From a virus, in IMG/VR virus record IMGVR_UViG_3300022907_000005, positions 1 through 64,000 of that record: a stretch of DNA of 64,000 nt, one strand, 5' to 3'. Positions 6,520 through 33,046 of the stretch are shown here, in pieces (position 1 is the first letter of the stretch; the number at the start of each line of letters is the position of its first letter). A model generated the notes under the pieces. The model was not told the DNA's origin and did not search any database. It saw only the letters and a list, made by a program, of their open reading frames with translations. The position numbers and the translations under genes were made by a program.

Positions 6520-6896
6520 TAAGAATCTCCTTCTTTTACGAAAACACCATCGACCATCTTACCTCTACGGTCTTTGATGTCATTATACGCTACACTTAGA
6601 CAGTCTGTCAATGACACATTGTTCCGTTCGGCAATGTTAATCAGCACGACCATACAGTCACCGATGTCATCTCTAACATCATTACCTTTACATACATTGT
6701 CACTAAGTTCACCTACCTCTTGGATCAATTTACAGACTTGATCTTTGTCTGTAGCTCCGTCGATGAGATTTCTATCTCGGTGCCATTGTTTTGTTGCGCT
6801 CACTAGCGCGATTAATCTTTCACTTTCATTCATTTGAGCAAGTCCTTTTAAGTTGCCGCGAATCATCATCAAAATTCTACGTTCATCATTTGTCAT
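6519..6896 (-). CDS. MazG-like NTP pyrophosphohydrolase
   Basis: KLIQEVGEL ... DDIGDCMVVL ... AYNDIKDRRG; ATGA overlap with polymerase stop. Confidence 0.85.
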   Translation of the reverse strand: MTNDERRILMMIRGNLKGLAQMNESERLIALVSATKQWHRDRNLIDGATDKDQVCKLIQEVGELSDNVCKGNDVRDDIGDCMVVLINIAERNNVSLTDCLSVAYNDIKDRRGKMVDGVFVKEGDS

Positions 6897-9382
6897 GAGA
6901 ACAAATCCTCCAGTGATGCCACGGGTCGTGGGGTCCAATTGATTGCCGTTGCAATAGTATTCATAGGGTCGATAAATGCCTTCTGAAACATTAGTTCATA
7001 GTCCACATATCTATGTAAATCAAACTCCGGCGGTAGTTTAGCGTTGAATGCAATACAGTTCTCGCCAAGGTGATTAGGTTCCTTGAGATACAGAAACTTA
7101 ATCTTCTCGCCATCCTGAATGCGCTCATGCTTCATTGTCAGATTATCACGCTTCAATACATGATTGTACATCAAAGCGCCTCGTACCTGCATCGGAGTGC
7201 CTTTAGAATAGATAGAAGCAGCATCAGAATATTTCTCTAAGTTGTTGCATCCTCTAGGGAAAGCAATCTGCTCGGGAGACATTTTCTGAAAGTCTCGCCA
7301 TGTATTCTCTACGAAATCCTGCAACACACCTTCTTCAGATGTGAGACAAAGTTTCACCGCCTCGCGTAGACTGTCTCTAACAGGAGCAGGTGTAGATGAC
7401 CGAACGACCTCTAAGCCCATCACCTTCAATTTAGGTTCAGCATAACGCACACCTTCATTATCGTACACGTTCAGAGCATATCTTTTCTTCGCTACCCAGA
7501 TGCCTTTGTCAGCAATAACCTCGCGCTTGAAGTCCATCTTTTGTGCAAATGCATTTGTATAGTCAGCAATACTATCCATTGCCTTAGCAATCGTAGGCTC
7601 AATTTGATCTGAGCCAATCTTGTCAAGGGCAGTGATAATGTTTGACTTGCTTTTATTCTTGAGAAACTTCTGTACAACGCCATCCATTGTGATGTAGCAA
7701 GAGTCAGTGTCCGAATAAAACGAGTACATCTTATCCTCAGTGCCACAGACGTTGTTCAAGAAATCATCAAGTGCCTTCGCAGACTCTCGGATGACAAACT
7801 GACCTGTCATCGTGATCCCTTCAGCAATTCTGTCATCATAATACCTGAAGTACTGATTGCCCATTGCACCATAGAGTGAGTTCAATTGAATCTTTCTAGC
7901 CATCTGAAAGTTATTGTATTTAGCAATGTCCTTCTGATATTTAGGATCCTTTGTCTCCTCGTATTTGTTCTGTGCCTGAATCATCAGCTTCTTGTATTTC
8001 TGCCGATCATCAAAAAACTTTGAAACAATCTCAGGAAATAGACCTTGTTTGTCGCGTGTGAATCTAGCACCGTTAGCAGCAATAGCATAATCGCCATCAA
8101 GGTTGTACTTGCGTTCAAGCATACCCTCAACGTTTACATCAACCATACCTTGTACGAGTGTCTCAGGAGACATGTTGTATTGCATGATGATAGAAGGATA
8201 CAGAGATGTCGCGTCGAATGCCATCACCCACTTGTATTCACCTGGCTTAGGCTCTTGCACAAACGCGCCTTCAATAGAACGACCCTGCGTATCTTTACGA
8301 GCAGGAATCATAATATTTTTAGCCAGCAAGTGATTGTACAGCAAGCAGTCCCAGGTTCTTACAGGTGAAAATGTATCACGGAAGTTCGACTTCGCGTCAT
8401 ATGTCATTGTAGCAATAAGCTCAATCAATTTCATCTTTTCTTCCAAGTCATCAATCAACTTGGTGTCGATGATGTTATAGTCGATGAAACGATTCCAGTC
8501 CTTATCGTAAAACTCCTTGAAAGTATCGAAGCCGCTTTCAAGTTTACCATGACCAAGTTCTACAGATGCAATGTGATCTAGCTTGTAGGATTCTTGCGCA
8601 CTGTAGGTAAACTTTTTGTACAGATCCAGATAGTCAAGGACTGAGATGCCTTTGATATCGTAAGTTGTATCTTCACGATTGTTTCGCTTGACACCCTTGC
8701 GTCTTGTTAGGTTGTAAGGAGATAGAGAGTTCTTTGCGTCATTGCCAAACACCCTGTCCATACGAGAAACAAGATATGGTATGTCAAAAAACTCAACGTT
8801 CCAACCAGTAACGATATCAGGATACTCATTCGCCCACCATGTCCCAAATTTAGTAAGCAGTTCAGTTTCATCCTCACAAGGAACATAGTTGACACCTAGA
8901 TCTTTTGTTTCAGGACCTGGACTCCACTCACCTTCTCCCCATGTTATGATCTCCTTTGTGTCATTATTCATCAACGTGATTAGAAGAATCTTGTCAGTAG
9001 GATTGTCTACGCTAGGAAAGCCTGTCTCAGCAGTAGTCTCAATGTCCATCGACCAGATAGATAACTGAGACAAATCAAACTCGATATCGCCCTGATATTC
9101 AGTAGATAGAAATTGATATGTCAGGTCAGTCTGTCCATAGATAGGATAGTTCTGAACCTGAGAATAGCTATCTAAGAATTCTTTAGCATCTCGGTTATTG
9201 CCGAATTGAATCGGCTTGATGTTCTCCCCATACAGTCCTCTGTACGGAGAGTCGCCATCAGCACGAACATATAGCGTAGGCTTGAAGGTTCGCTTTTCAG
9301 TAAAGCGTTTGCCATCGCGCACACCACGCAAGAATACTTGGTTACCATACTGCCAAGCCCAGCTGTAAAATTCGTTTTTCAT
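6893..9382 (-). CDS. 43: family B DNA polymerase gp43
   Basis: DIET exo, FDATSLYPSII, KIQLNSLYG, YSDTDS, KKRY; C-terminal SLEDLFS. Confidence 0.98.
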   Translation of the reverse strand: MKNEFYSWAWQYGNQVFLRGVRDGKRFTEKRTFKPTLYVRADGDSPYRGLYGENIKPIQFGNNRDAKEFLDSYSQVQNYPIYGQTDLTYQFLSTEYQGDIEFDLSQLSIWSMDIETTAETGFPSVDNPTDKILLITLMNNDTKEIITWGEGEWSPGPETKDLGVNYVPCEDETELLTKFGTWWANEYPDIVTGWNVEFFDIPYLVSRMDRVFGNDAKNSLSPYNLTRRKGVKRNNREDTTYDIKGISVLDYLDLYKKFTYSAQESYKLDHIASVELGHGKLESGFDTFKEFYDKDWNRFIDYNIIDTKLIDDLEEKMKLIELIATMTYDAKSNFRDTFSPVRTWDCLLYNHLLAKNIMIPARKDTQGRSIEGAFVQEPKPGEYKWVMAFDATSLYPSIIMQYNMSPETLVQGMVDVNVEGMLERKYNLDGDYAIAANGARFTRDKQGLFPEIVSKFFDDRQKYKKLMIQAQNKYEETKDPKYQKDIAKYNNFQMARKIQLNSLYGAMGNQYFRYYDDRIAEGITMTGQFVIRESAKALDDFLNNVCGTEDKMYSFYSDTDSCYITMDGVVQKFLKNKSKSNIITALDKIGSDQIEPTIAKAMDSIADYTNAFAQKMDFKREVIADKGIWVAKKRYALNVYDNEGVRYAEPKLKVMGLEVVRSSTPAPVRDSLREAVKLCLTSEEGVLQDFVENTWRDFQKMSPEQIAFPRGCNNLEKYSDAASIYSKGTPMQVRGALMYNHVLKRDNLTMKHERIQDGEKIKFLYLKEPNHLGENCIAFNAKLPPEFDLHRYVDYELMFQKAFIDPMNTIATAINWTPRPVASLEDLFS

Positions 9383-9389
9383 AGCACAC

Positions 9390-9418
9390 ATTATATATCA
9401 TAATAAGGGGGGTGTCAA
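9390..9418 (-). promoter_or_regulatory. consensus sigma70 promoter for gene 43
   Basis: TTGACA-17-TATAAT, 7 nt before ATG. Confidence 0.85.
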
Positions 9419-11438: not shown

Positions 11439-11891
11439 TTAACGCCCCCCTTTGTTCAACCTCTGCTTGATAACCTCGATATTTTTGTCAGTCAATATGC
11501 GTAATGCATCAGCCGCTTTAGTATTGCTGTAGCCATAATACTCTTTTAAGATATCAATCAACTCTTCCTTTTCAGGCTTCATCCATTTGTTATATCTTTT
11601 CTTAGGGCGAACAACATTCAAAAGAAAATCATATTGTAGTTTTTTGTCAAGATGCGGACGAGAGTTCATTTCATTCGCAGCAATCACCGTGTCAGGGCCA
11701 TAGCTCATAGCCTTATTGACGATGAAAGGATTGTATTGCCTTTCACTCCAATCATCGACGATAAGATTTTCTTTGCTATGATTAATCGTGTTCGCAAAAT
11801 CGAAAGGACTAATTGCCTTTTTCTTTTCCTTGAAAGACTCCTCGTCGTACTGCTCGGTAGGCTTACCTAACTCTTCAAGATAGCTCGACAT
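11439..11891 (-). CDS. 62: clamp loader small subunit gp62
   Basis: YNPFIVNKAMS, EMN, LQYDFL, YYGYSNTKA; synteny. Confidence 0.93.
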   Translation of the reverse strand: MSSYLEELGKPTEQYDEESFKEKKKAISPFDFANTINHSKENLIVDDWSERQYNPFIVNKAMSYGPDTVIAANEMNSRPHLDKKLQYDFLLNVVRPKKRYNKWMKPEKEELIDILKEYYGYSNTKAADALRILTDKNIEVIKQRLNKGGR

Positions 11892-12807
11892 TCGCCATGA
11901 TCTCCGTTAGACAAGCAGTAAGATTGATCTCTTGGTCAGCACAAAACGCAGCCTTATACTGATAGTCAGCAATGATTAGCACTAACTGCGGGACTTGCTT
12001 GACCTTAGGAATCAGAGTATCATATACCTTACGATACACTGACTGCGGGTCAGAGTCTACACTATTAGCGACCCACTGTCGCATCTTCTTGAAGTCCTTG
12101 TCTCTAAGGGCGTCTACGAGAGCCTTAGTGCTAAGTTCTGCTAGATTACTCAGTACACCCTCGTCAATCACACCACCAGCACCATAGCGTTGTAGCTCGT
12201 TCAGAACCCTACGATAGTCAGGGAAATGCTTCATCAGCAGTTCAGCAAGAACCTTATCATTGTAATCTACCTTCTCTTTCTTGAGAATATCCATCATTCG
12301 TTTGTGAAACAGCCCAGCCATCTTTTTCTTCTGACCGTTCACAAGTTTGAATTCAACCACAGTAGTTCTACTGTGAAGAGGAGCAATGATTCGATTCTTG
12401 AAGTTACAAGTAAAGATAAACCTACAGTTCTTAGAAAACTCCTCGATGAATGCACGAAGAGCAGGCTGTGTAGAGTTCGGATTCAGATAATCAGCCTCGT
12501 CTAAGATGACAACCTTAGGCTTACCTTCAAATGAAACTGTACTAGCAAAGCCTTTGATCTTTGTCCTGAGAACATCGATGCCTGATTCTTCAGACCCGTT
12601 GATTACAATGTAATCGCAGCCGAGTTCATTGCAGAGAGCGCGGGCAACAGTAGTCTTACCTGTACCCGCTGTCCCGCAGAGAAGCATGTTAGGAATTTCT
12701 CCAGCCTCGATAAACTGTTGAAATACTTGTTTCTGCGCGTCAGGCAAAATACATTCTTCCAACGTCCGTGGTCGATATTTTTCAACCCACAAGAATTCAT
12801 CTGACAT
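11875..12807 (-). CDS. 44: clamp loader ATPase gp44
   Basis: LWVEKYRP, GTAGTGKTT, DEADYL, HFPDYRR. Confidence 0.97.
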   Translation of the reverse strand: MSDEFLWVEKYRPRTLEECILPDAQKQVFQQFIEAGEIPNMLLCGTAGTGKTTVARALCNELGCDYIVINGSEESGIDVLRTKIKGFASTVSFEGKPKVVILDEADYLNPNSTQPALRAFIEEFSKNCRFIFTCNFKNRIIAPLHSRTTVVEFKLVNGQKKKMAGLFHKRMMDILKKEKVDYNDKVLAELLMKHFPDYRRVLNELQRYGAGGVIDEGVLSNLAELSTKALVDALRDKDFKKMRQWVANSVDSDPQSVYRKVYDTLIPKVKQVPQLVLIIADYQYKAAFCADQEINLTACLTEIMANVELS

Positions 12808-13490: not shown

Positions 13491-14147
13491 CTAAATAACT
13501 GAGCTAGGTTCAAGTGCTAACCAATACTTCATATCAGATGAAGTGCTAGATAAGTACATGAATTTTTTCTTTGAAAGCGTAACATCATATTCGCCCGTGA
13601 TCACCTTGAAGTTCTCCACTGCGAGGCGGCAATCAAAGTCAAGATCGCTTTCACCTATGACATGCCTGAAAGTGTTGCTCTTAGGAGTTGAGGGGTCGCC
13701 GACTGATAACGTCACCGTGCCGCCCTTAGCAACTACACTCAGCATTGGCGCAGATACAATTGCAGCAGCCTTCATTATCATATTCACTTCTTCAGAAGTC
13801 AAAGTAAACTTATAATGCTCATCAACCTCAATCGTTTTGTCTGGTGCTGCGACAACAATGCTAGGATCAGCATAGTAGTATTCAAATTGACTTTGATCCT
13901 TGCCTACTGTCATACTACTCTCACCGAATGCAACATCAGTATCATCCATCAGAGTGAGAAGTGCCAACAGACTATTGAGATCATAAATCGCAAACTCACG
14001 ATCAAATGTCTCAGAGATTGTAGTGCGAGAAAAAATGTTTTTCCCCGTGCTAATCGTCGCTAGAGTGTTACCCTCACGAACAAGGATGTTCGTGTTGATA
14101 CTAGCATAGTTTTTTAGAATGTCCAGGGTGGACTTCGATATTTTCAT
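13491..14147 (-). CDS. 45: sliding clamp gp45
   Basis: MKISKSTLDILKNYASIN, FAIYDLN, YWLALE. Confidence 0.95.
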   Translation of the reverse strand: MKISKSTLDILKNYASINTNILVREGNTLATISTGKNIFSRTTISETFDREFAIYDLNSLLALLTLMDDTDVAFGESSMTVGKDQSQFEYYYADPSIVVAAPDKTIEVDEHYKFTLTSEEVNMIMKAAAIVSAPMLSVVAKGGTVTLSVGDPSTPKSNTFRHVIGESDLDFDCRLAVENFKVITGEYDVTLSKKKFMYLSSTSSDMKYWLALEPSSVI

Positions 14148-23135: not shown

Positions 23136-24196
23136 TTAATATCTTGTGCTTCCACATATAGAGTTCGCAATTGTGTTTTCAACCTATCACGGTCAAGATC
23201 AGTATTGATATTATCCACATAATCTACAAGCAATGTCATCGTATCCTCTAGATCAATATTCTCTTCACCTACTGCCTCGTCTTCAAACTCAGAAAAGTCT
23301 TCGATGATTTTCAACTCATTGAGGTTACAAGTATACAACGTATCAACTAGCTTGTCAAATGCCGTGAAGTCCGTTTTGTTCACAACAATCAATTTGACAG
23401 ATCGGTTCTGTAACGTAGAGTAATCAAATTCCTCAATCTGTTTCATAACCTGTACATTAGTATCATCATAGTATACTTTATGAAACATTTTGTAGGGATT
23501 CTCATAAAATGTAAAGTCTACAGTTTCTGTCTCCATGATATGAAACCCTCTCGGATCATCGTAATCTGACCAAGTAATTTCGTATGGATTTCCGAGATAA
23601 AATATATTACCACTACGGTCACGATGATGAAAGTGCCCACTACAAACAAGGTCAAACTGATTAAAAATCTTAGAATCCATACCATGCTCATTTCTAACGC
23701 CTTTATACATCTGGAAACCAGCAAGTTCAAAATGACCAAAACAAATGGTAGCATCTGCATTCTCCAAAGCATCTTTTGATGCTGCATAATTCTCTGAACA
23801 GATCCAAGGCATCAGTAGAATATTAGTATTGCCGAACTTAACTTCAGTCGGATCTTGATACAAAATTATGTTGTCATACTCTGCGAGTAATAGGTTAGGT
23901 GAGTTTACTTCATTTGTATTTTTGAAATAGGTGTCGTGATTGCCTGGTATAAGATGTATGTCTATACCTCTGCGGCGTGCCGCATCAAAAAAATATTTCT
24001 TGCAACTCGCTAAGGTGTTGAAATTGATGTACTTCCGTCGATCAAAAATATCACCCAAGTGAATGATTGTCTTTACACCCTGTTTCTCTATCTCAGGGAA
24101 AAACGAATCATTGTAGAAACTCTCAAAGAAATTGTCAAACGGAATAGAATCCGATCTAGCACCGAAGTGCGTGTCCGTGATGATTGCTACCTTCAT
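23132..24196 (-). CDS. 47: recombination nuclease gp47 (Mre11/SbcD-like)
   Basis: TDTHFG, LGDIFD, GNHD, GHFE, SGHFH. Confidence 0.97.
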   Translation of the reverse strand: MKVAIITDTHFGARSDSIPFDNFFESFYNDSFFPEIEKQGVKTIIHLGDIFDRRKYINFNTLASCKKYFFDAARRRGIDIHLIPGNHDTYFKNTNEVNSPNLLLAEYDNIILYQDPTEVKFGNTNILLMPWICSENYAASKDALENADATICFGHFELAGFQMYKGVRNEHGMDSKIFNQFDLVCSGHFHHRDRSGNIFYLGNPYEITWSDYDDPRGFHIMETETVDFTFYENPYKMFHKVYYDDTNVQVMKQIEEFDYSTLQNRSVKLIVVNKTDFTAFDKLVDTLYTCNLNELKIIEDFSEFEDEAVGEENIDLEDTMTLLVDYVDNINTDLDRDRLKTQLRTLYVEAQDIK

Positions 24197-24639
24197 GCGT
24201 AAAAGACACCGGAGTTTGCGCCGTGTTCCATACACTCAACTTCGGTCACCCAACAGCGATTGTCTGTCATGTTTCTAACCATTTCATCAGTATATATGAA
24301 TGCGTGTTCAGCAAACTTTTCACACCCCACGCCATCAAGTACAGTAAGTGATGCGAGTCCAGATTCTTCTAACTCTTCAAACATATCCATTGCGGGGTCG
24401 TTAACATCGACAACAAGTTTGTGGTCAAAGTGATCTTCAAGCCAATATTTAAGGTCCTTCAGACCGCCGAAATCTACAACCCAGTTCTTATCATCTAAAC
24501 TTTCACAAGCAAAAGTAAACTTGAATCCTAGAGAATACCCATGCAACAAAGAGCAATGACTATGCGTTGCGTTAGGCTGTCTGAAAGTACACGAAAGTCC
24601 TCTCTCATGTCCATATGTTTTTGTAGATAAATGCATCAC
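24193..24639 (-). CDS. queD: 6-carboxytetrahydropterin synthase
   Basis: HCSLLHGY, WVVDFG, FDH, GCEKFAE, EHGANS. Confidence 0.92.
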   Translation of the reverse strand: MMHLSTKTYGHERGLSCTFRQPNATHSHCSLLHGYSLGFKFTFACESLDDKNWVVDFGGLKDLKYWLEDHFDHKLVVDVNDPAMDMFEELEESGLASLTVLDGVGCEKFAEHAFIYTDEMVRNMTDNRCWVTEVECMEHGANSGVFYA

Positions 24640-25682
24640 TCTTCACCCTTTAGTACGTTGATTAAACCGTCAGCAGAAAAATATTCTTCTGTTAGAAACT
24701 TATAATTCTTATCTATACTATGTAACATCAAACCATCATCATAGAATGTCATCATCTGTCGAATACGGGCAAGCAACTCTTCTCGGTGCTTTTCATATTG
24801 AGCAAAAGATGCTGTCCAATCAGATGGATATTTGAATTCGTGACTGTACATTTCGCTGTACGATAGAGCATCCGGCACTAACGGCATGCCGCCTGCACAT
24901 AGAATTTCATAGCAACCTATACCTAGAGTCTCCTGTAAGTTTGCAGAGAACACCATCTTAGCTGAACCAAGCAACTTATGATACTCTGCTTTAGTGAGAG
25001 ATTCATCTTGTGCTACAACCAGTGTGTACTCAGGTAAATGTTTCTGCATATCTCTGAATATTTCAGGCTGTTTCTCGACAGCTAATCGATGTGGGAATAG
25101 TATCACATCCTCTTTATCGATACCACGTGTGTCATGCGCAATCTCATGGATCAAATAATCCATAGGCCAGCCTGTTCGATACGTTCTATCAGTGCCAAAG
25201 CAGACATTGAACATACCCTTGTGATCATGCGATGCAAACCAATTGTAGTCGTATGCATGATAAAAACTTTTCTCGGCATGTTGCAACCATCGCTGATCAC
25301 CATGCGCGCCGAGAAAATCATTAGGGTCATACGAACCGGCATGCCAAAGACCGTGAGTTTCTACAGGTACACCTAGCAACTGTGACATGTATTTTAAGTT
25401 GATGATACCTGGATGCCACGCATCAGCGAACACGAACTTGTCGCCTGGTTGGACTTTGTTTGCATGAAACAACTCAGCAATTTTCCTAACTTGCTCAGAC
25501 TTGTAGATGTTCGTACCAGAGAAATTTAGAAATGCACCAGGTGTTGCGCACTCAGCAATGTTATTAGGACCGTCAATGACAGTCACAGCCGCACCCGCAT
25601 TTCTAATAGCCTCAGGGAAATGTACTTTCCACTGTGCTGTGTAGCGAGTCTCTACATATTCTAGATCAACTAAATAGATCAT
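24636..25682 (-). CDS. GT-B fold glycosyltransferase
   Basis: FPHRLAVEKQPE and ETLGIGCYE (EX7E-like) GT4-type motifs. Confidence 0.8.
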   Translation of the reverse strand: MIYLVDLEYVETRYTAQWKVHFPEAIRNAGAAVTVIDGPNNIAECATPGAFLNFSGTNIYKSEQVRKIAELFHANKVQPGDKFVFADAWHPGIINLKYMSQLLGVPVETHGLWHAGSYDPNDFLGAHGDQRWLQHAEKSFYHAYDYNWFASHDHKGMFNVCFGTDRTYRTGWPMDYLIHEIAHDTRGIDKEDVILFPHRLAVEKQPEIFRDMQKHLPEYTLVVAQDESLTKAEYHKLLGSAKMVFSANLQETLGIGCYEILCAGGMPLVPDALSYSEMYSHEFKYPSDWTASFAQYEKHREELLARIRQMMTFYDDGLMLHSIDKNYKFLTEEYFSADGLINVLKGEE

Positions 25683-26022
25683 TCTGTACAATACCCCCAT
25701 TCTCATCGTCTTCGTAAACTTCAACCTTGCAAGCTCTGTCAGGGTAATATGCTTCCATGTAATCAAGCAGACTATCTGCAAGCATTTCACATGATTGATT
25801 GTTTAACTGCAAAGTCCCGCCATCATATAACGCTTCAAGTTCACGCTTCAATAGTATGAATTCAACATCTCTGTCATCATGAAACACTCCAAGAGTCACA
25901 TAGAAGTGAAACATATGCCGATGTGGGTATTGCAAAAATTCTACACCAGGTAGATTTGCAGCGGCAGGGTATTTGTGAATGCCTTCTTTCTGAAAACTAA
26001 CCTGAATAAAACTTTTTCTCAT
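25666..26022 (-). CDS. dpdL: QueD-paralog T-fold protein, DpdL-like (putative CDG decarboxylase)
   Basis: LQYPHRHMF matches the LxxxHRHxF signature as I recall it for DpdL; SCE and terminal EDDENG; adjacent to dpdA. Confidence 0.7.
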   Translation of the reverse strand: MRKSFIQVSFQKEGIHKYPAAANLPGVEFLQYPHRHMFHFYVTLGVFHDDRDVEFILLKRELEALYDGGTLQLNNQSCEMLADSLLDYMEAYYPDRACKVEVYEDDENGGIVQNDLFS

Positions 26023-27284
26023 AAAAACAAATCCTCTAATGACGGCGGTGCGTCTGTTCGTACAGGGGTAGATTTCATACTACCTCCCAGATACTGGTCA
26101 GATTCCCATCTACGGAAATCGTCAACAGATTTGATATTATACAAGTTTCTGAATTGATGTTCAAGCCGCATCTTGACCGAATACTTCAATAAAGCATCTT
26201 TGTCAGTCAGCATGGTTTGCATAGTTCGCATGAAGTTTCGAGTACTACCTGCAACAACCATAGTCCTAACACGCATCCACATATACAGATCGCCGCCTAG
26301 TTTCTTATAGTCACCTACGCCGTTGTTTAGCACATTGTAGAAGTCTTCAATAGTAGTACCTACATCCATAACTGTATTGAGATCGTTGTAAATTAATTCA
26401 TAGTTAGGACCCCATGCTCTACCTATGGACATAGTTCTGCCATTGATAAAGTACAATCCATTCTCTGCTGCTCTTGCATGCGAGGTACTATCATATGAAA
26501 TTTCAACGTGATCATACAGCCCATTCTGACAAAAGATTAGATAAGGAATCATGCGTCGAACACTGCCGACTCCTAGAACGTGAAGATGTAATTTGCCTTC
26601 TGCATTTCTAAAAGGAAGCTGACTAGCAATAAATGCACGTTTCACATCTTCAAGTGGTCCTGTTCCGAGTGCAGCCGCACCCATAGCAACGCCTCCAATG
26701 TAGCCGTGTCCGCTCTGTGGGACCTCAGATAGCATCCTATCAAACCAAGTCATGTATGTGTCATAGCAATTTCCTTGTAAAATTGCAAATGATTTACAGG
26801 AGCTTGATTTCTCATCAAATATCTCTACTTGCTTTCTGATATTATTGCCTGTTTTTCTAGCAAGTGCCTCGTAGTTTTCAAAGTCAAAGTATCTACCTGA
26901 AACATCGTTTCTATCTGACTTGCCACTTGGCATGATGATAGGTATCTCATCAAAGCACATACCAACATCAGCAAATTCCGCTTGATTGTGATATACCTTT
27001 TCTTTCAACTCTTCAGTGATAGTCTTACCTTGTGTGACTATCTGCAATCCACCAGAGTCTGCGTGAATGTTTTTGATATGATCTCTGTAAGGTTCAAATC
27101 GTCCTCCATAGTCTGCTTCTTGATATGCATTATACAAGATAGAATAATTGTGACTATAATGATTGTTGACAAAATTATCAAAGATTTGATTTATCACGCC
27201 AGCAGTATCAGGATCATTAGCCGCAAGAGGGTTTGCGATCCGCATATAGCTTGTCCCTGATACTACATACTCTAGCTTATGCAT
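26019..27284 (-). CDS. dpdA: TGT-fold 7-deazaguanine transglycosylase (DpdA family)
   Basis: ADSGGLQ (TGT DSGGFQ), FDEIP, ILQG, GGVAMG, HVLGVG, SYDSTS; context with folE/queD/queE. Confidence 0.85.
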   Translation of the reverse strand: MHKLEYVVSGTSYMRIANPLAANDPDTAGVINQIFDNFVNNHYSHNYSILYNAYQEADYGGRFEPYRDHIKNIHADSGGLQIVTQGKTITEELKEKVYHNQAEFADVGMCFDEIPIIMPSGKSDRNDVSGRYFDFENYEALARKTGNNIRKQVEIFDEKSSSCKSFAILQGNCYDTYMTWFDRMLSEVPQSGHGYIGGVAMGAAALGTGPLEDVKRAFIASQLPFRNAEGKLHLHVLGVGSVRRMIPYLIFCQNGLYDHVEISYDSTSHARAAENGLYFINGRTMSIGRAWGPNYELIYNDLNTVMDVGTTIEDFYNVLNNGVGDYKKLGGDLYMWMRVRTMVVAGSTRNFMRTMQTMLTDKDALLKYSVKMRLEHQFRNLYNIKSVDDFRRWESDQYLGGSMKSTPVRTDAPPSLEDLFL

Positions 27285-27816
27285 TCATGAAGTCCGGGGT
27301 AGCTCTGTTAGTCCACTTAGAGAAATGTGCCTTGTATTGTCGATAATATTTTTGATATGCCAACACAGCATCATCACCCTTGACATCATCAGGCATTGCT
27401 TGCGGCAATACAGTAAGATTGCCTTCAGGGATATTCTTAGGTGAGTCAACAACAAGTGCGTGTAGTTTTGTATAGGAACCATGCTCTTTGCCATAGCGAA
27501 AGGTATACTCGTTGCATGTTTCAATCCAGAGTGTGTGCAACCATCGATAGTTCGCAGACGTTTCGCGTGTCCATATGTTAGAAGGATGGTTGATATGACT
27601 AGCTTTGTACAGCGTAGACTCCATTACATCATCAGACATGCGCCAACGCTTGATGCGTCGATTGTTTGCAGTTTTATCGATATACATTTCACCGTCAAGT
27701 ACACGGTGAGCAGTAGAAAGTAACTGAGCATATTCTGTAGCCATCTTCACAACATGCTTGTCGTTTTGTAGCATTGCGGCAACAGCAGGATCTTCGTTTA
27801 GTTTGAATACATTCAT
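27277..27816 (-). CDS. pyrimidine-dimer glycosylase (EndoV)-like protein
   Basis: MNVF ... DKHVVKMATEYAQLLSTAH, HINHPSNIW, EYTFRYGKEH. Confidence 0.7.
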   Translation of the reverse strand: MNVFKLNEDPAVAAMLQNDKHVVKMATEYAQLLSTAHRVLDGEMYIDKTANNRRIKRWRMSDDVMESTLYKASHINHPSNIWTRETSANYRWLHTLWIETCNEYTFRYGKEHGSYTKLHALVVDSPKNIPEGNLTVLPQAMPDDVKGDDAVLAYQKYYRQYKAHFSKWTNRATPDFMNA

Positions 27817-28025
27817 AGACCTAACACCTTTTTGATTTCATTACTCTGCTCAATCTTACCTAGATAGTAAGCATCAATAATAATATTATAGATGGTTTCT
27901 CTGTCCATGTCAAGCAATTTATGATCTTCTTTTTGACCAAGTCCGTCACGAAGACTCACAACCAAATCGCCTTGGTAGGTCATCTTGATGTCTGTTACAT
28001 CACGAAGGATTTTAGGCTTCTTCAT
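27813..28025 (-). CDS. hypothetical protein
   Basis: 70 aa, translationally coupled. Confidence 0.7.
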   Translation of the reverse strand: MKKPKILRDVTDIKMTYQGDLVVSLRDGLGQKEDHKLLDMDRETIYNIIIDAYYLGKIEQSNEIKKVLGL

Positions 28026-28026
28026 A

Positions 28027-28551
28027 CTAACTCCTGAGTATAGTCAATAAGGTTCGCGTTTGACTCATTGCATCGTCAAGTGCATTATGATGAGTGTCAG
28101 CCTCTGCCTTTCGTATCTTAACATTACTAACGCCTACTAGATTCAACACTGTCCTGTAGCACTGCACTTTCCATGCTGACCATGGGATAGTCCTATCAGT
28201 GTTCCAGTATGCTGATTCTAATATCGATATGTCAAACGCGGCACCGTTGCCCCAGATGACAGTATTCTTTCGGTCAGTCCCATACCATTCAGCAAACATA
28301 TCCAATGCATCACCAATTGGTTTAGGATCAACAGTCAATGCTTTCCTAGCATCCGGTGACTGCCTTGACCACCACTCAACCGTTTCTTTGGATACATGCA
28401 ACCCAACATCTTTACATGATTGACCATCAACATTAACATAGAATGTATCAAGTACCCCATCTTCGACATTAAAAGCCACTGCACCGATAGAAAGAATTGC
28501 CGCATAAGGTCTGACGCTAAGAGTTTCGATGTCTACCATTATATGTTTCAT
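28027..28551 (-). CDS. DEDDh 3'-5' exonuclease (DexA/Rv2179c-like)
   Basis: MVDIETL, WGNGAAFD, HNALDDA. Confidence 0.88.
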   Translation of the reverse strand: MKHIMVDIETLSVRPYAAILSIGAVAFNVEDGVLDTFYVNVDGQSCKDVGLHVSKETVEWWSRQSPDARKALTVDPKPIGDALDMFAEWYGTDRKNTVIWGNGAAFDISILESAYWNTDRTIPWSAWKVQCYRTVLNLVGVSNVKIRKAEADTHHNALDDAMSQTRTLLTILRS

Positions 28552-29234
28552 GATCTAGGTGCAAACTCCTGTTGTAATTTGATGTTGTCGAAAAATTCTT
28601 TCTTTAGGTCTGGCTTTTTAAAGCCCCCTCTTAATACAGTTGTCTGTGTTAAGGAACTGTGTGCTTTAATACCTCTGTTCTCGCAACAACCATGCGTTGC
28701 TTGCACATACACCCCTACATGCTCTGCGCCTGAGTGTTCTTGTATCTCATTAGCGATCATAACATTGAGTTCTTCTTGTAATGTACCACGCATAGCACAC
28801 CACTGTGCGATCCGCGTGTACTTACTTAGACCTAAGAGCTTGTCACCCGCAATGATTCCTATGTATGCAACGCCTGAGACTGGCTGATGATGATGCGAAC
28901 AAATACTTTTCAATTCACTTCTGACAACCAGCATACCCTCATAACCGTCTTCTACATAATTGGGAAAACTGTTGGGGTCTGGCATTGGATAATATCTGCC
29001 ACTCATGATTTCATGCACATACATTTTAGCCATTCGCCTTGCTGTACCAATGCTATTAGGATCTTCTTCCGTGTCAATTATCAGAGATTGCAACACGCTT
29101 TCAAATTTATCTGAGACTTCATCGACTAGCAAGTCAAGTTCATCATCTTCAATAAATCCTGAGATGTTATCTGCCGCATAGTATCGAGAACCAGAACGTT
29201 CAATTCGATCTCTAATTGTTTGGCTTATGCTCAT
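28548..29234 (-). CDS. folE: GTP cyclohydrolase I
   Basis: SICSHHH, GLSKYTRI, LQEEL, HGCCENRG. Confidence 0.96.
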   Translation of the reverse strand: MSISQTIRDRIERSGSRYYAADNISGFIEDDELDLLVDEVSDKFESVLQSLIIDTEEDPNSIGTARRMAKMYVHEIMSGRYYPMPDPNSFPNYVEDGYEGMLVVRSELKSICSHHHQPVSGVAYIGIIAGDKLLGLSKYTRIAQWCAMRGTLQEELNVMIANEIQEHSGAEHVGVYVQATHGCCENRGIKAHSSLTQTTVLRGGFKKPDLKKEFFDNIKLQQEFAPRS

Positions 29235-29793
29235 TTGTTCTTTCCTTCACATCATCTAGTATTGAATATGCAATTTTTCTATGTCCTTCTGCATTAGGAT
29301 GCTGACATAGTTCCATATCATCTTCACATAATTCTTTCAAAGTGCCTGGTATAAAATTATCCCACTGTTCCATCTGAATTAACATGTGTTCAACAAATCC
29401 TGCATACATTATAGATGGAACTGAATTCTTTGTCAAGTAGTTTTCTGCCGATCTGATAGAAATTTCTGACATGTAATAGCAGATATCTAGTTCTCTTGGT
29501 TTGCGTACCCTAAGATTCGCTTTCTTGAATCTCAAACGTTCTGGGTCCCAGTCCCAATCTCTAGTATGTCCACTCCATGTTACAAGTGCAAATTGATCTT
29601 CTGTGAAATCGTGTGCTAATATCTGACTAGCGATTGCAGGATTTGAGTTTCCATCTATACCGTAATTTATTAGATCAAATCCCAACTCATTGGCGACATG
29701 CTCGACGAACGGTGTGACATAGTAACGATTGTTCGGGTCTGGTTTATTTAGACCTGAAGTGTAGCTGTCACCAAATGCTACTATTGTTCCCAT
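29212..29793 (-). CDS. SGNH/GDSL hydrolase-like protein
   Basis: FGDSYT, GIDGNSN, HPNAEGH. Confidence 0.75.
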   Translation of the reverse strand: MGTIVAFGDSYTSGLNKPDPNNRYYVTPFVEHVANELGFDLINYGIDGNSNPAIASQILAHDFTEDQFALVTWSGHTRDWDWDPERLRFKKANLRVRKPRELDICYYMSEISIRSAENYLTKNSVPSIMYAGFVEHMLIQMEQWDNFIPGTLKELCEDDMELCQHPNAEGHRKIAYSILDDVKERTNEHKPNN

Positions 29794-30173
29794 GGGAAAA
29801 CTACCCAGTCATCAGCCTCAAAATACTCTGCTCTATATTTTGCCATACTATCGCCTGTCTTGTCTATTAGAACGGCAAAATCGGTGTTCTTAAATACTTC
29901 AGATAATCCTCTTATTGTATCACCTGTGTCACAGATGTCATCTACAATCAAAGCCTTTTGGTAACTTTGCTGTGAGATGATGTGCATTGAGCCGTTACCA
30001 TCTCTTAATTGGTATTGAACAGTAGCCATTGGTACGCCTAGCAAGTGCGACAGTTGAACAGCAGGAACTAAACCGCCTCTTGTGACACCTATGATGATGT
30101 CGTAATTTTGATCTTGTACGCGGCGATATAGTTTATTGATCATCGCATCATACTGTTCCCATGTTATATGCAT
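29781..30173 (-). CDS. type I purine phosphoribosyltransferase (Gpt-like)
   Basis: GVTRGGLVPA, LIVDDICDTGDT PRPP loop, WVVFPWE. Confidence 0.9.
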   Translation of the reverse strand: MHITWEQYDAMINKLYRRVQDQNYDIIIGVTRGGLVPAVQLSHLLGVPMATVQYQLRDGNGSMHIISQQSYQKALIVDDICDTGDTIRGLSEVFKNTDFAVLIDKTGDSMAKYRAEYFEADDWVVFPWEQ

Positions 30174-31060
30174 TATGTACCTATCGCGTTGCCGAAAACG
30201 TAGCTATGATTTCTCGTAGCTACTTTATAACCACGACACATCGCTTCCATGCAGATGTCAGCAACTTCTTCTTGCTCTTCTTTTGTCGCACCTGCAGGCA
30301 TTATCCAAACTTCTGGGTGCGGAATCTCGTTTGAATCAGCCAGAGCATTTGTTTCTCTACACCAGTAATCAATCTCGTTCCAAGAATTCTCTGTGCCGTT
30401 ACACACAAATTTTATGATGCCTGTGCTTCGTGTTGCCTGTAAGTAATCGACGTAGATATCTGGCATAATTTTGTCTTTCTCGCCAGCAGTGAACAGCGTC
30501 TTAGGACTAATAGCCCAATGCCAACGTATTCCCATATCAGCAAGATATACGTTGATGAAATCTCGCAGTTCAGGATTCAATGGTTTTGTACCGTTTGTTT
30601 CTACGGTGATTATTTTAGGTGGGTTGCCGCGAATCAGAAACTCATTGACAATTGCCTTCATTTGTTTCTGTCGCAACATGGGTTCGCCACCTGTAAAAGC
30701 AAGCATATTTTCTTGACCAGTTACAGGATGCGTAAATTTGTTGAAAGGTAAACTTAATTCTATTCTGTCACAAACTTCTTCAACATCACAGTCTTGCGCC
30801 AAATGCTTATACTTCTTTGACCATGAGTAGGAGCTGTCACATCCATACTGCCATACAGGAAGATCTTCAACCTTTTTCACATTGATCAGGTCATAGTCTT
30901 TGTATGGCAATATCCATGTGCTTTCATCTTCAGGATTCTTTTGACCGAAGCCATTGCATTCTAAGTTGCAACCAAAGAATCGAAGCCATGCAGTAGGTGT
31001 GCCAGCTAGTTCTGCTTCACCTTGGAAGCTATAAAAAATCTCGGAGTATCTAATATTCAT
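30173..31060 (-). CDS. queE: 7-carboxy-7-deazaguanine synthase (radical SAM)
   Basis: EIFYSFQGE, RFFGCNLEC ... CDS, TGGEP, VETNGT, ISPK. Confidence 0.92.
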   Translation of the reverse strand: MNIRYSEIFYSFQGEAELAGTPTAWLRFFGCNLECNGFGQKNPEDESTWILPYKDYDLINVKKVEDLPVWQYGCDSSYSWSKKYKHLAQDCDVEEVCDRIELSLPFNKFTHPVTGQENMLAFTGGEPMLRQKQMKAIVNEFLIRGNPPKIITVETNGTKPLNPELRDFINVYLADMGIRWHWAISPKTLFTAGEKDKIMPDIYVDYLQATRSTGIIKFVCNGTENSWNEIDYWCRETNALADSNEIPHPEVWIMPAGATKEEQEEVADICMEAMCRGYKVATRNHSYVFGNAIGT

Positions 31061-31066
31061 ACGCGC

Positions 31067-31095
31067 ATTATACAAGTATTCAAATGTTATGTCAA
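31067..31095 (-). promoter_or_regulatory. consensus sigma70 promoter for the deazaguanine operon
   Basis: TTGACA-17-TATAAT, 6 nt before queE ATG. Confidence 0.85.
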
Positions 31096-31098
31096 GAA

Positions 31099-31686
31099 CT
31101 AATCAGCCAAATCTTTAAGTTGTTCGACCTTTTCTTTCGCTAACTTGAGTGCTTCAGCATCATCAAAGTATTTCGGTCTACGCTTAGCCAGCTTCTGATC
31201 CTTGTGTTTTTCATTTAGCATTGCAGCATCATCAGCTTGCTTGCGAATGAAATCCAGATATTCGGTGTTGCCCGATCCTTCTTCATCTGCAATCAGCCCT
31301 TCTATGTCAACACTCTTGATATATTTTTGCTTGATGTCTAGCTGTTTCTTTTCTTTCTGAATTCTACGCAGAAAAGCATAGTAGGTAATTTGCGTGAAAT
31401 ATGCAAACGGGTTCTTAGATTTTTCAGGATTGAAGTTGTCAATATAGGTGATGCAGTTTTCAATGCCATCCAGAATCATTTCATCTCGAAAGGTATAATT
31501 GACAAAATTGGATTTGTATGCCAAATGGTTTGCAATCTTGACCATGCATTCACCAAGATAATGGGTGACGCGAGGCTTCGGTTCGTCTGCTTCTTTTGCT
31601 GCCAACACCTTTTCTCGATACTCAGAAATTTGTTTTAGAAATTCCTTGTTATCGATATAGTGAGCAGTCTTTGTTTTTGTCTTCAC
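31099..31686 (-). CDS. 55: late-transcription sigma factor gp55
   Basis: HYIDNKEF, NFVNYTFRDEMILDGIEN, NPFAYFTQI, RRIQKEKKQ; GTG start. Confidence 0.96.
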   Translation of the reverse strand: MKTKTKTAHYIDNKEFLKQISEYREKVLAAKEADEPKPRVTHYLGECMVKIANHLAYKSNFVNYTFRDEMILDGIENCITYIDNFNPEKSKNPFAYFTQITYYAFLRRIQKEKKQLDIKQKYIKSVDIEGLIADEEGSGNTEYLDFIRKQADDAAMLNEKHKDQKLAKRRPKYFDDAEALKLAKEKVEQLKDLAD

Positions 31687-31720
31687 TTTAGGTCTCCATA
31701 ATAAAAATAAAAAATAACGC

Positions 31721-31749
31721 TTGACAACGTATTTAGTTTGCTGTATACT
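31721..31749 (+). promoter_or_regulatory. antisense-oriented sigma70 promoter
   Basis: TTGACA-17-TATACT with upstream A-tracts, pointing against the minus-strand operon. Confidence 0.7.
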
Positions 31750-31778
31750 TCGCTATGTTGCGATTGAAAGGAATAATA

Positions 31779-32153
31779 TCAATGTATCTTTGTTACACTA
31801 TCAGATGGGATAAGATTTGGTAGCTCATCTTCTAGCTCTCCCTCGTCATCTCCTCCCAAGTAAAAATGTTCAACTGTTGCCATATATTCTGACGCATACT
31901 CTGTTTTTAGTTCAGTAATATAAAGTATTACACTACTATTTATAGTGATTGAATCCGCGCTTGAGAGAGTTTGCCAAGGCTTCAAGTTAAATCTCTCACG
32001 CATGTCCTTCCCTGCTTCTTTGTATAATGTGATAACTTCAACAGGAAAAGTGAGATTGATAGTATCATTCAAATTTTGTGTATACGCATTATCAATCATA
32101 GCAATAACTATATCACCTGTTTTCAGTTTAAAAATTCTTATTGTATCACTCAT
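31779..32153 (-). CDS. conserved hypothetical protein (Sm-like) upstream of gene 55
   Basis: IFKLKTGDIVIA ... LKPW pattern. Confidence 0.75.
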   Translation of the reverse strand: MSDTIRIFKLKTGDIVIAMIDNAYTQNLNDTINLTFPVEVITLYKEAGKDMRERFNLKPWQTLSSADSITINSSVILYITELKTEYASEYMATVEHFYLGGDDEGELEDELPNLIPSDSVTKIH

Positions 32154-33046
32154 GCAAAAAGAGACTCCAATGTGTTAACTACATAATCTTTTGTGTATGG
32201 TCTTGTTATTCTCTTATCAAGATATATACCATATCGTCTTCCTACATATTTATACCACTGCCCGCGACTAGCAGGTAAGCCATAGATTCTACTAAAGATC
32301 TTATCACCTTTATCCATCTCTGCTTTACGAGTGTTTTGTGCTCCAGCGTGTGTACTAGGAGAGGTAAACTCTTTCAACATAATGTTTCTTAGAATGTAAG
32401 TGCCATAACCATTCATCGCACATTCAAGTGCAAAGAAATCATCTTCACCTACTACTAATTGTCCATCTACATAATCAAACTCTTCGTTGAACATAACCTT
32501 GGCATCATTTTTTCTTAGAAAGAACATCGTACCTTTCATAGAGCCAAACTTTCTATCAAAGCACAACTCATCGTCCCATTTAACATTGAGATAATTTTTA
32601 TCAAGATTGCTGTACTTGTCTTTGAATGCGCCGTCTCCCGGTCTACCGTCCCAGTGAGGGAAGAACAGATCAACACCCTCAAAATTCTCTGGGTATTCTG
32701 TGAGTACGTCACATATGTTGATACCTGTGTGTGAGAATTCTGCGTGTTCTTTTAGTATAGCATCGTTGTCCATAAACAACGCCCACTCATGTGTGCTATC
32801 TGCATAGAAAGCCTCAAGCAATACGTTTCTCGCTTTCCCAGGCGGTACCAAAGCATGCGGTAAATACTGAACGCCAGGTATATACTCATCTGCGTAATAG
32901 TCTTGTGCTAAAACTTTAATTTCCATATTAGGACAAGTCTTTCGCCAGAATTCAATTTGCTGTTTGTGATTTTCTACCCGGATGCTTCTCGCTTCTGGTT
33001 CATCCTTACTGCCAAAGTAAGATATGATGTATGCTTTCACGTTCAT
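32150..33046 (-). CDS. GT-A fold glycosyltransferase, possibly DNA-acting
   Basis: GKARN, FMDNDA (DxD), GEDDFFAL; C-terminal TLESLFA. Confidence 0.65.
   Translation of the reverse strand: MNVKAYIISYFGSKDEPEARSIRVENHKQQIEFWRKTCPNMEIKVLAQDYYADEYIPGVQYLPHALVPPGKARNVLLEAFYADSTHEWALFMDNDAILKEHAEFSHTGINICDVLTEYPENFEGVDLFFPHWDGRPGDGAFKDKYSNLDKNYLNVKWDDELCFDRKFGSMKGTMFFLRKNDAKVMFNEEFDYVDGQLVVGEDDFFALECAMNGYGTYILRNIMLKEFTSPSTHAGAQNTRKAEMDKGDKIFSRIYGLPASRGQWYKYVGRRYGIYLDKRITRPYTKDYVVNTLESLFA

Follow-up and report, generated by a model that had tools for sequence, protein, structure and literature searches.

Polymerase-type C-terminal tails on a DpdA2-type transglycosylase and a GT-A glycosyltransferase of an uncultured T4-like marine phage suggest docking on the gp45 sliding clamp

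The window analyzed here is a stretch of 64,000 nucleotides, the first 64 kb of the 96,483-base IMG/VR viral contig IMGVR_UViG_3300022907_000005, which is estimated to be 58% complete and comes from an uncultured T4-like marine phage. Three proteins encoded in it, the DNA polymerase gp43, a DpdA2-type DNA guanine transglycosylase and a glycosyltransferase of the GT-A fold, end in almost the same short peptide. The tails of the two enzymes are near-copies of the polymerase tail, and the comparative evidence makes it likely that all three are docking peptides of the T4/RB69 type for the gp45 sliding clamp. The transglycosylase and the GT-A protein would then probably both dock on the clamp, while the idea that the GT-A protein acts on DNA is put forward with lower confidence than the docking of the tails.

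The reference tail is SLEDLFS of gp43 (codons 6896-6916, translation checked). The transglycosylase (gene 26019-27284) ends in SLEDLFL (codons 26022-26042) and the GT-A protein (gene 32150-33046) in TLESLFA (codons 32153-32173); these genes, like the other features of the window given below, are on the minus strand. All three tails are thus found where the initial annotation had placed them, and its statement that no other gene product has such an ending holds for the whole contig. In fact, the pattern [ST]LE.LF occurs only three times in the 31,276 residues of 115 chosen open reading frames (ORFs) of the contig, each time starting at position -7 from the C-terminus and never internally, so that 3 of the 115 ORFs end in it. 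Among the 1,406 six-frame open frames of at least 30 residues, again three terminate in the pattern. The motif probability per position, taken from the proteome's own composition, is 2.4e-6, and the composition-based chance that at least two further ORFs of the contig end in the polymerase motif is 3.7e-8. Weaker look-alikes in the window are the end of a DpdL-like protein (NDLFS) and that of gp55 (QLKDLAD).

The proposed partner is encoded in the same window, which carries a T4-type replisome. This consists of the family-B DNA polymerase gp43 (6893..9391; phrog_262, E = 0), the clamp loader proteins gp62 (11439-11891; phrog_225, 1.2e-43) and gp44 (11875-12807; phrog_168, 3e-122) and the sliding clamp gp45 (13491..14147; phrog_223, 3.7e-61), and gp46, gp47, uvsW and gp55 are present as well. 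The gp45 of the window matches the RB69 clamp (PDB 1b77/1b8h) and T4 gp45 (1czd) at E = 1.6e-16, and is matched in 1,274 phage records. At the DNA level the closest known phages are very distant, with one stretch of 77% identity, located in the gp55 gene of a Synechococcus phage.

In the HMMER alignment of the polymerases, ASLEDLF of the window gp43 falls on ASLFDMF of RB69 gp43 (residues 895-901 of 903), and the C-terminal 11-residue peptide of RB69 gp43 has been co-crystallised on RB69 gp45 (PDB 1b8h; PMC2988020). The C-termini of gp43, gp55 and gp33 are hydrophobic-acidic and can stand in for one another as gp45-binding epitopes (PMC2988020), and in the T4 record gp43 ends in SLDFLFG and gp55 in SLDFLYEAND, in agreement with what the initial annotation says about T4. 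Because of the alignment to the RB69 peptide, the T4 tails and the interchangeable epitopes, the polymerase tail of the window is, judged by sequence, homologous in position and chemistry to a peptide proven to bind gp45. The tails described here are like the T4/RB69 epitopes in being hydrophobic-acidic peptides that close the protein chain and have the core S-L-x-D/x-L/M-F; a variable linker ahead of the tail, as in the epitopes, is predicted for DpdA2. They differ in that two of the three carriers are DNA-base-altering enzymes and in that gp55 of this clade has no polymerase-type tail.

The 421-residue transglycosylase (26019..27284) was identified by tblastn and by AlphaFold/Foldseek, and by its sequence belongs to the DpdA2 subfamily, which was defined on Vibrio phage nt-1. 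The tblastn matches of the nt-1, VH7D and KVP40 type have E values of 1e-39 to 1e-43, with 34-37% identity to nt-1 and VH7D over residues 4-297. In total 71 phage records are matched, with hosts in Vibrio, Stenotrophomonas, Xanthomonas, Acidovorax, Pseudomonas and Synechococcus, and every inspected record among them has a T4-type polymerase. The AlphaFold model (pLDDT 92.7) has the TGT fold with a Foldseek probability of 1.0 and TM of 0.5-0.6 to the Zymomonas mobilis and mouse TGT; the NCBIfam TGT models match weakly, under cut-off, and a profile of the protein found no match among PDB sequences. It shares with the published subfamily (PMC6884629, PMC10516641) a homologous catalytic domain, the TGT fold and FolE, QueD, QueE and DpdL neighbours. 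For the nt-1 and VH7D enzymes, insertion of preQ0, preQ1 and CDG into DNA has been shown experimentally (PMC10516641).

The tail is conserved among the homologues of this protein. The pattern [STN]L[ED..]x[LFMW]F followed by 0-2 residues ends 100 of the 117 full-length DpdA2 homologues (41-100% identity), and is found at the end of 0.7% of 1,512 background phage ORFs, true positives included. In an alignment of 41 DpdA2 sequences, L416 of the motif is invariant and F420 is present in 36; the preceding residues 406-414 are more variable, except V408 and P413. In the structural model, residues 396-415 form a coil, that is, a linker of about 20 residues, which is followed by a 4-residue helix at the motif, and the pLDDT falls toward the end (88, 79, 64). 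As modelled, these features are what a short linear motif on a tether would show.

Moreover, the enzyme tails vary together with the polymerase tail of their own genome. Polymerase and enzyme tails were paired for 20 genomes, or 11 lineages, and compared with permuted pairs; the GT-A tail classes LFSF/W and IFDWG and many metagenomic DpdA2 and GT-A proteins stand outside this pairing. In a permutation test that ignores kinship among genomes, the similarity to the own polymerase was 21.3 for the 20 genomes versus 16.8 +/- 1.0 after permutation (p ~2e-4), and 19.3 for the 11 lineages versus 13.7 +/- 1.7 (p ~4e-4). Eleven marine genomes, Moby and ACP17 have LF-type tails on both polymerase and enzymes (the enzyme tail of one genome, G037, is of the MF type); Moby, for example, pairs SLEDLFGW with SLDDLFG. 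In ACP17 the polymerase ends in SLDDLFE and DpdA2 (L254 3992-5266) in TLDELFE. BUCT-ZZ01 has TLDDFFS on the polymerase, SLDSFFD on DpdA2 and SLEDFFND on a GT-B protein, while G033 has SLDDFF and DLEDFF on polymerase and DpdA2, and nt-1 has TLESFFG on the polymerase and SLANFF on ArcS. The same holds for GT-A in jumbo phages: polymerase DNLFDF and GT-A NALFSF in G005/G007, polymerase TNLFEF and GT-A GSLFD in G010/G011. The check that the initial annotation had proposed, co-conservation of the tails with gp43 in homologues, thus came out in its favour, in conservation as well as in co-variation. On the sequences compared, the co-variation is supportive of a common partner, not proof of one.

Several observations weigh against gp45 docking. 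Some individual tails do not fit: in pf16 the end of DpdA2, TLDLMCA, has little in common with the polymerase tail SLEDFFS, and in G034 the tails of both proteins are deviant. Kinship among genomes does not enter the permutation statistic. The DpdA2 proteins that have been studied experimentally, those of nt-1 and of the VH7D/KVP40 type, have no tail, terminal or internal; an internal motif was sought in those of nt-1 and KVP40 and not found. The characterised nt-1 and VH7D enzymes possess a different C-terminal region, and Schizotequatrovirus DpdA2 is without any such motif. Because the experimentally studied enzymes lack it, the tail is not required for DpdA2 catalysis. The gp55 tails of the window phage, G001, BUCT-ZZ01 and G011 are without the polymerase-type motif. 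Furthermore, GT-A and DpdA2 are distributed independently of each other, gp45 was not detected in the jumbo phages (by phrog_223, PF02916 or phmmer with the window gp45), and the binding of T4 alpha-glucosyltransferase to gp45, reported in 2004 (PMID 15381072), was not reproduced in pull-downs with C-terminally His-tagged enzymes (bioRxiv 10.64898/2025.12.06.692756).

The end of the window gp55 (late sigma factor, 31099..31686; phrog_234, 6.5e-58) resembles that of the polymerase in degenerate form at most, and the end of G001 gp55 (93767-94393) shows nothing similar; as a positive control in this phage gp55 failed, its tail being degenerate. No gp33 homologue was recognised in the window phage. 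Late transcription activated by the clamp may be wired differently in these phages, as far as the gp55 tail and gp33 are concerned.

The GT-A protein (32150..33046, 298 residues) is encoded by a gene whose start overlaps the end of uvsW. Its AlphaFold model (pLDDT 90.3) matches AvpGT (9jn3), TarP, TarS and GalNAc-T2 with a Foldseek probability of 1.0, and D93 and D95 of the DxD motif are invariant in 28 homologues; searches of Pfam, PHROG and NCBIfam gave no match. The tails of the homologues follow the local polymerase tail. A link of this family to deazaguanine by co-occurrence was considered and did not hold: five near-complete genomes with DpdA2 have no GT-A, and two near-complete jumbo genomes with GT-A have no DpdA2. 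Because the distribution of the GT-A family is independent of that of DpdA2, its acceptor, on these sequence comparisons, need not be a deazaguanine. The proposal that the enzymes ride the clamp keeps comparative support in conservation and co-variation. In the jumbo phages (G011 and G005, 342-kb contigs; L092, L082) the GT-A gene is found without DpdA2, lies near a DNA ligase and has a tail like that of the local polymerase.

We infer a tie of the GT-A protein to DNA from the tail, the position in the uvsW-gp55 block and the nearby ligase in jumbo phages. A competing view, which we hold to be unlikely, is that the protein docks on the clamp while its acceptor is not DNA. It might then transfer sugar to a small molecule or to a protein of the replisome, or the tail might serve only to concentrate it in the replication zone. 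The best structural neighbours indeed act on nucleosides, teichoic acids and proteins, none of them being a DNA glycosyltransferase; the family also occurs without DpdA2, and no hydroxymethyl-pyrimidine route of the ThyA type was found in the phage clade. This last search covered G000, G001 and G035, where the absence of a ThyA-type enzyme is uninformative for the acceptor, and the jumbo phages do have a ThyA-type enzyme, which scores like ordinary ThyA. Against a non-DNA acceptor, however, the gene sits in a block of DNA metabolism and adjoins DNA ligase in jumbo phages, a second and unrelated glycosyltransferase family next to dpdA evolved the same tail, and the known clamp clients act on DNA.

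Somewhat less probable still, and in our estimate unlikely, is that the tails bind another common partner and not gp45, such as the clamp loader, a helicase loader, a gp32-like protein, a chaperone, a protease or a localisation factor. Co-variation and conservation indicate a common partner without naming it, the T4 clamp loader and gp45 have ligand surfaces in common (PMC2988020), and in the jumbo phages matching polymerase and GT-A tails occur where gp45 was not detected. A gp44-like loader is present in those jumbo phages, and for this reason a divergent clamp is likely there. What speaks for gp45 rather than another partner is that the polymerase tail is the homologue, by position, of the peptide of RB69 that was seen bound on gp45, that the acidic and Leu/Phe chemistry fits the T4 epitopes, and that gp45 and its loader are encoded in this phage.

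If the tails do dock on gp45, the following course of events can be proposed. The gp44/62 loader would place gp45 at primer ends and nicks, and the gp45 trimer would present hydrophobic pockets for several clients. By means of the tail and the short flexible linker ahead of it, DpdA2 and GT-A would each occupy a pocket, which would keep them on newly replicated phage DNA and let them slide on it. There DpdA2 would swap guanine for a 7-deazaguanine base, and GT-A would transfer a sugar to a DNA acceptor. Their action would then be coupled to replication, also in its timing relative to the fork. A different role for the same docking, which we hold to be very improbable, is that the tails are regulators that compete with gp43 for gp45, slowing or timing replication or displacing the polymerase, while catalysis is independent of the clamp. 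T4 clients do compete for the same, identical gp45 sites (PMC2988020), and DpdA2 enzymes without the tail show catalytic activity in E. coli (PMC10516641). A pure competitor, however, would need no attached enzyme, and the carriers of the tail are enzymes of four families, unrelated to one another and each linked to DNA modification, with no non-enzymatic protein among them.

The two further families are a GT-B glycosyltransferase and ArcS. GT-B proteins with a tail, unrelated to GT-A, adjoin dpdA in BUCT-ZZ01 (L056 6656-7999) and in L015 (9815-11173), and these two are 36% identical to each other. In the GT-B family, 58 of 92 full-length representatives have a hydrophobic-aromatic tail, versus 9% of background ORFs, in the flavours LEDLF, LDDFF, LFSF, LFEF and xLF. 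The family has no sequence similarity to T4 alpha-glucosyltransferase and no PHROG match. In nt-1, ORF388 of the DUF5591 family (L057 4498-5178) ends in NSLANFF, of the FF type like the polymerase tail. We equate it with the published ArcS on the grounds of Pfam family and gene position, the paper giving no ORF number; ArcS of nt-1 makes dG+ in DNA, as shown by experiment (PMC10516641). The strict motif is found in two of 237 ORFs in G001, three in BUCT-ZZ01, two in nt-1 and two in G011, and in those complete genomes it marks only the polymerase and such enzymes.

In BUCT-ZZ01 a T4-type baseplate protein (L124 7844-8554) ends in GLETFFA; it is likely a chance look-alike and shows that a loose pattern yields false positives. 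That the common tail as such has no function and simply reflects chance or composition is effectively refuted, for although the loose pattern does arise by chance, as in this baseplate protein and in the 9% of background ORFs that pass the loosest filter, the tail has the very low chance expectation given above, persists in over 100 homologues, as far down as 41% identity, and co-varies with the polymerase tail.

More tentatively, clamp tethering might be general among T4-like phages and related jumbo phages and repeatedly evolved, with the unrelated enzymes DpdA2, GT-A, GT-B, ArcS and perhaps DpdL having each gained a copy of the local polymerase tail and sharing gp45 as a tool belt, the clamp replacing DpdB here, and the enzymes writing a new, possibly glycosylated 7-deazaguanine-based modification at a density far above the under 0.1% of tail-less DpdA2; we regard this wider picture as possible but rather doubtful as a whole.

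Clamp recruitment of enzymes other than polymerases has precedents. T4 DNA ligase (PMC6212786, PDB 6drt) is likewise a non-polymerase DNA enzyme recruited to gp45 by a short motif, but its motif lies in an internal loop and adopts a helical PIP-box conformation (PMC6212786), whereas the tails here are copies of the C-terminal tail of the polymerase. T4 alpha-glucosyltransferase was proposed to glycosylate DNA while on the clamp, directly behind the fork (Sommer et al. 2004, PMID 15381072). That enzyme is of the GT-B fold and ends in KEQFDIITK without a polymerase-type tail, in contrast to the explicit, conserved and co-varying tails described here. The view that a clamp link for such enzymes had not been described stands for DpdA as far as our literature search reaches; for a phage DNA glycosyltransferase the idea appeared in 2004 and was contested in 2025. 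The present tails bear on the dispute over DNA glycosyltransferases on the sliding clamp, with an explicit motif that T4 does not offer. For DpdA, our literature search found no paper that links it to a sliding clamp; in PMC6884629 and PMC10516641 post-replicative modification is proposed in general terms, and the word "clamp" has no occurrence in them.

The bacterial DpdA with its ATPase DpdB (PMC10164549) resembles the present system in TGT-like guanine exchange in double-stranded DNA, for which a helper is required. A DpdB was not noticed among the annotated ORFs here, where no systematic search for it was made. The clamp tail may supply DNA tracking in place of DpdB. If so, docking would explain how the base-exchange enzyme finds and scans new phage DNA without an ATPase partner of the bacterial type. 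In eukaryotes, DNMT1 and UNG2 are coupled to replication through PIP boxes on PCNA; there the clamp, the motif and the domain of life are different, and the activities are methylation or uracil removal. What would be new here are the clients and the use to which a known clamp-binding motif is put.

Two expectations follow for the DpdA2 enzymes. First, the number of guanines modified should be far larger for tail-bearing DpdA2 (this clade, Menderavirus, Busanvirus) than for the Vibrio-phage enzymes without a tail, where under 0.1% of G is modified by the proteins studied at the bench (PMC10516641). Second, the reconstitution of ACP17 DpdL and DpdA in E. coli, which aimed at dDG and failed (PMC10516641), might be cured by adding the phage clamp and loader. 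ACP17 DpdA2 and polymerase have the matching tails given above, and the absent clamp is a possible reason for that failure. For annotation, the comparison suggests the rule that where a phage has a T4-type replisome, any protein with the same C-terminal tail as its polymerase should be considered a candidate client of the clamp. Such a rule flags orphan enzymes, among them the GT-A protein and the GT-B family, as likely to modify DNA.

The DpdA2 gene is embedded among precursor genes for its base, in a 7-deazaguanine cluster (24193..31075) between gp47 and gp55. The cluster contains QueD (24193-24639, Pfam PTPS), the DpdL-like protein (25666..26022), FolE (28548-29234, Pfam GTP_cyclohydroI), a purine phosphoribosyltransferase (29781-30173, Pfam Pribosyltran) and QueE (30173-31075; the NCBIfam QueE models match weakly, far under their cut-offs). 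QueC was not found in the 96.5-kb contig, which at 58% completeness represents part of the genome. Because FolE, QueD, QueE and DpdL are present and QueC is not, the predicted base is 7-deazaguanine or the 7-carboxy form of it (dDG or dCDG), and probably not preQ0.

The DpdL-like protein has 118 residues and a T-fold and is a proposed CDG decarboxylase. Its translation contains LxxxHRHxF, the signature of DpdL, which is known from ACP17 and phiST (PMC10516641), and tblastn matches ACP17 at 3e-28 and phiST at 3e-12, at the regions assigned to DpdL. The NDLFS end (25669-25683) has DLFS in common with the polymerase and is a possible degenerate fourth tail. An ending NDLF[SNDG] recurs in many marine homologues, and other lineages stop just before it. 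As a full fourth client DpdL was not accepted, as the invariant Leu is missing and the ending is absent in ACP17, BUCT-ZZ01 and others; NDLFS might be a weak clamp tail, or might serve to contact DpdA2.

The deazaguanine cluster fills the slot between genes 47 and 55 in which T4 has alpha-gt. The small purine phosphoribosyltransferase gene directly after queE could serve to salvage the guanine that is freed by base exchange. Also in the cluster, and overlapping the DpdL gene at its end, is a gene (24636-25682) for a GT-B-like protein, for which the Atlas gives glycosyl transferase family 1 as a lead. This protein has no tail, and a homologue of it occurs in BUCT-ZZ01 (E = 4e-14). The phage may thus possess one tethered and one free glycosyltransferase.

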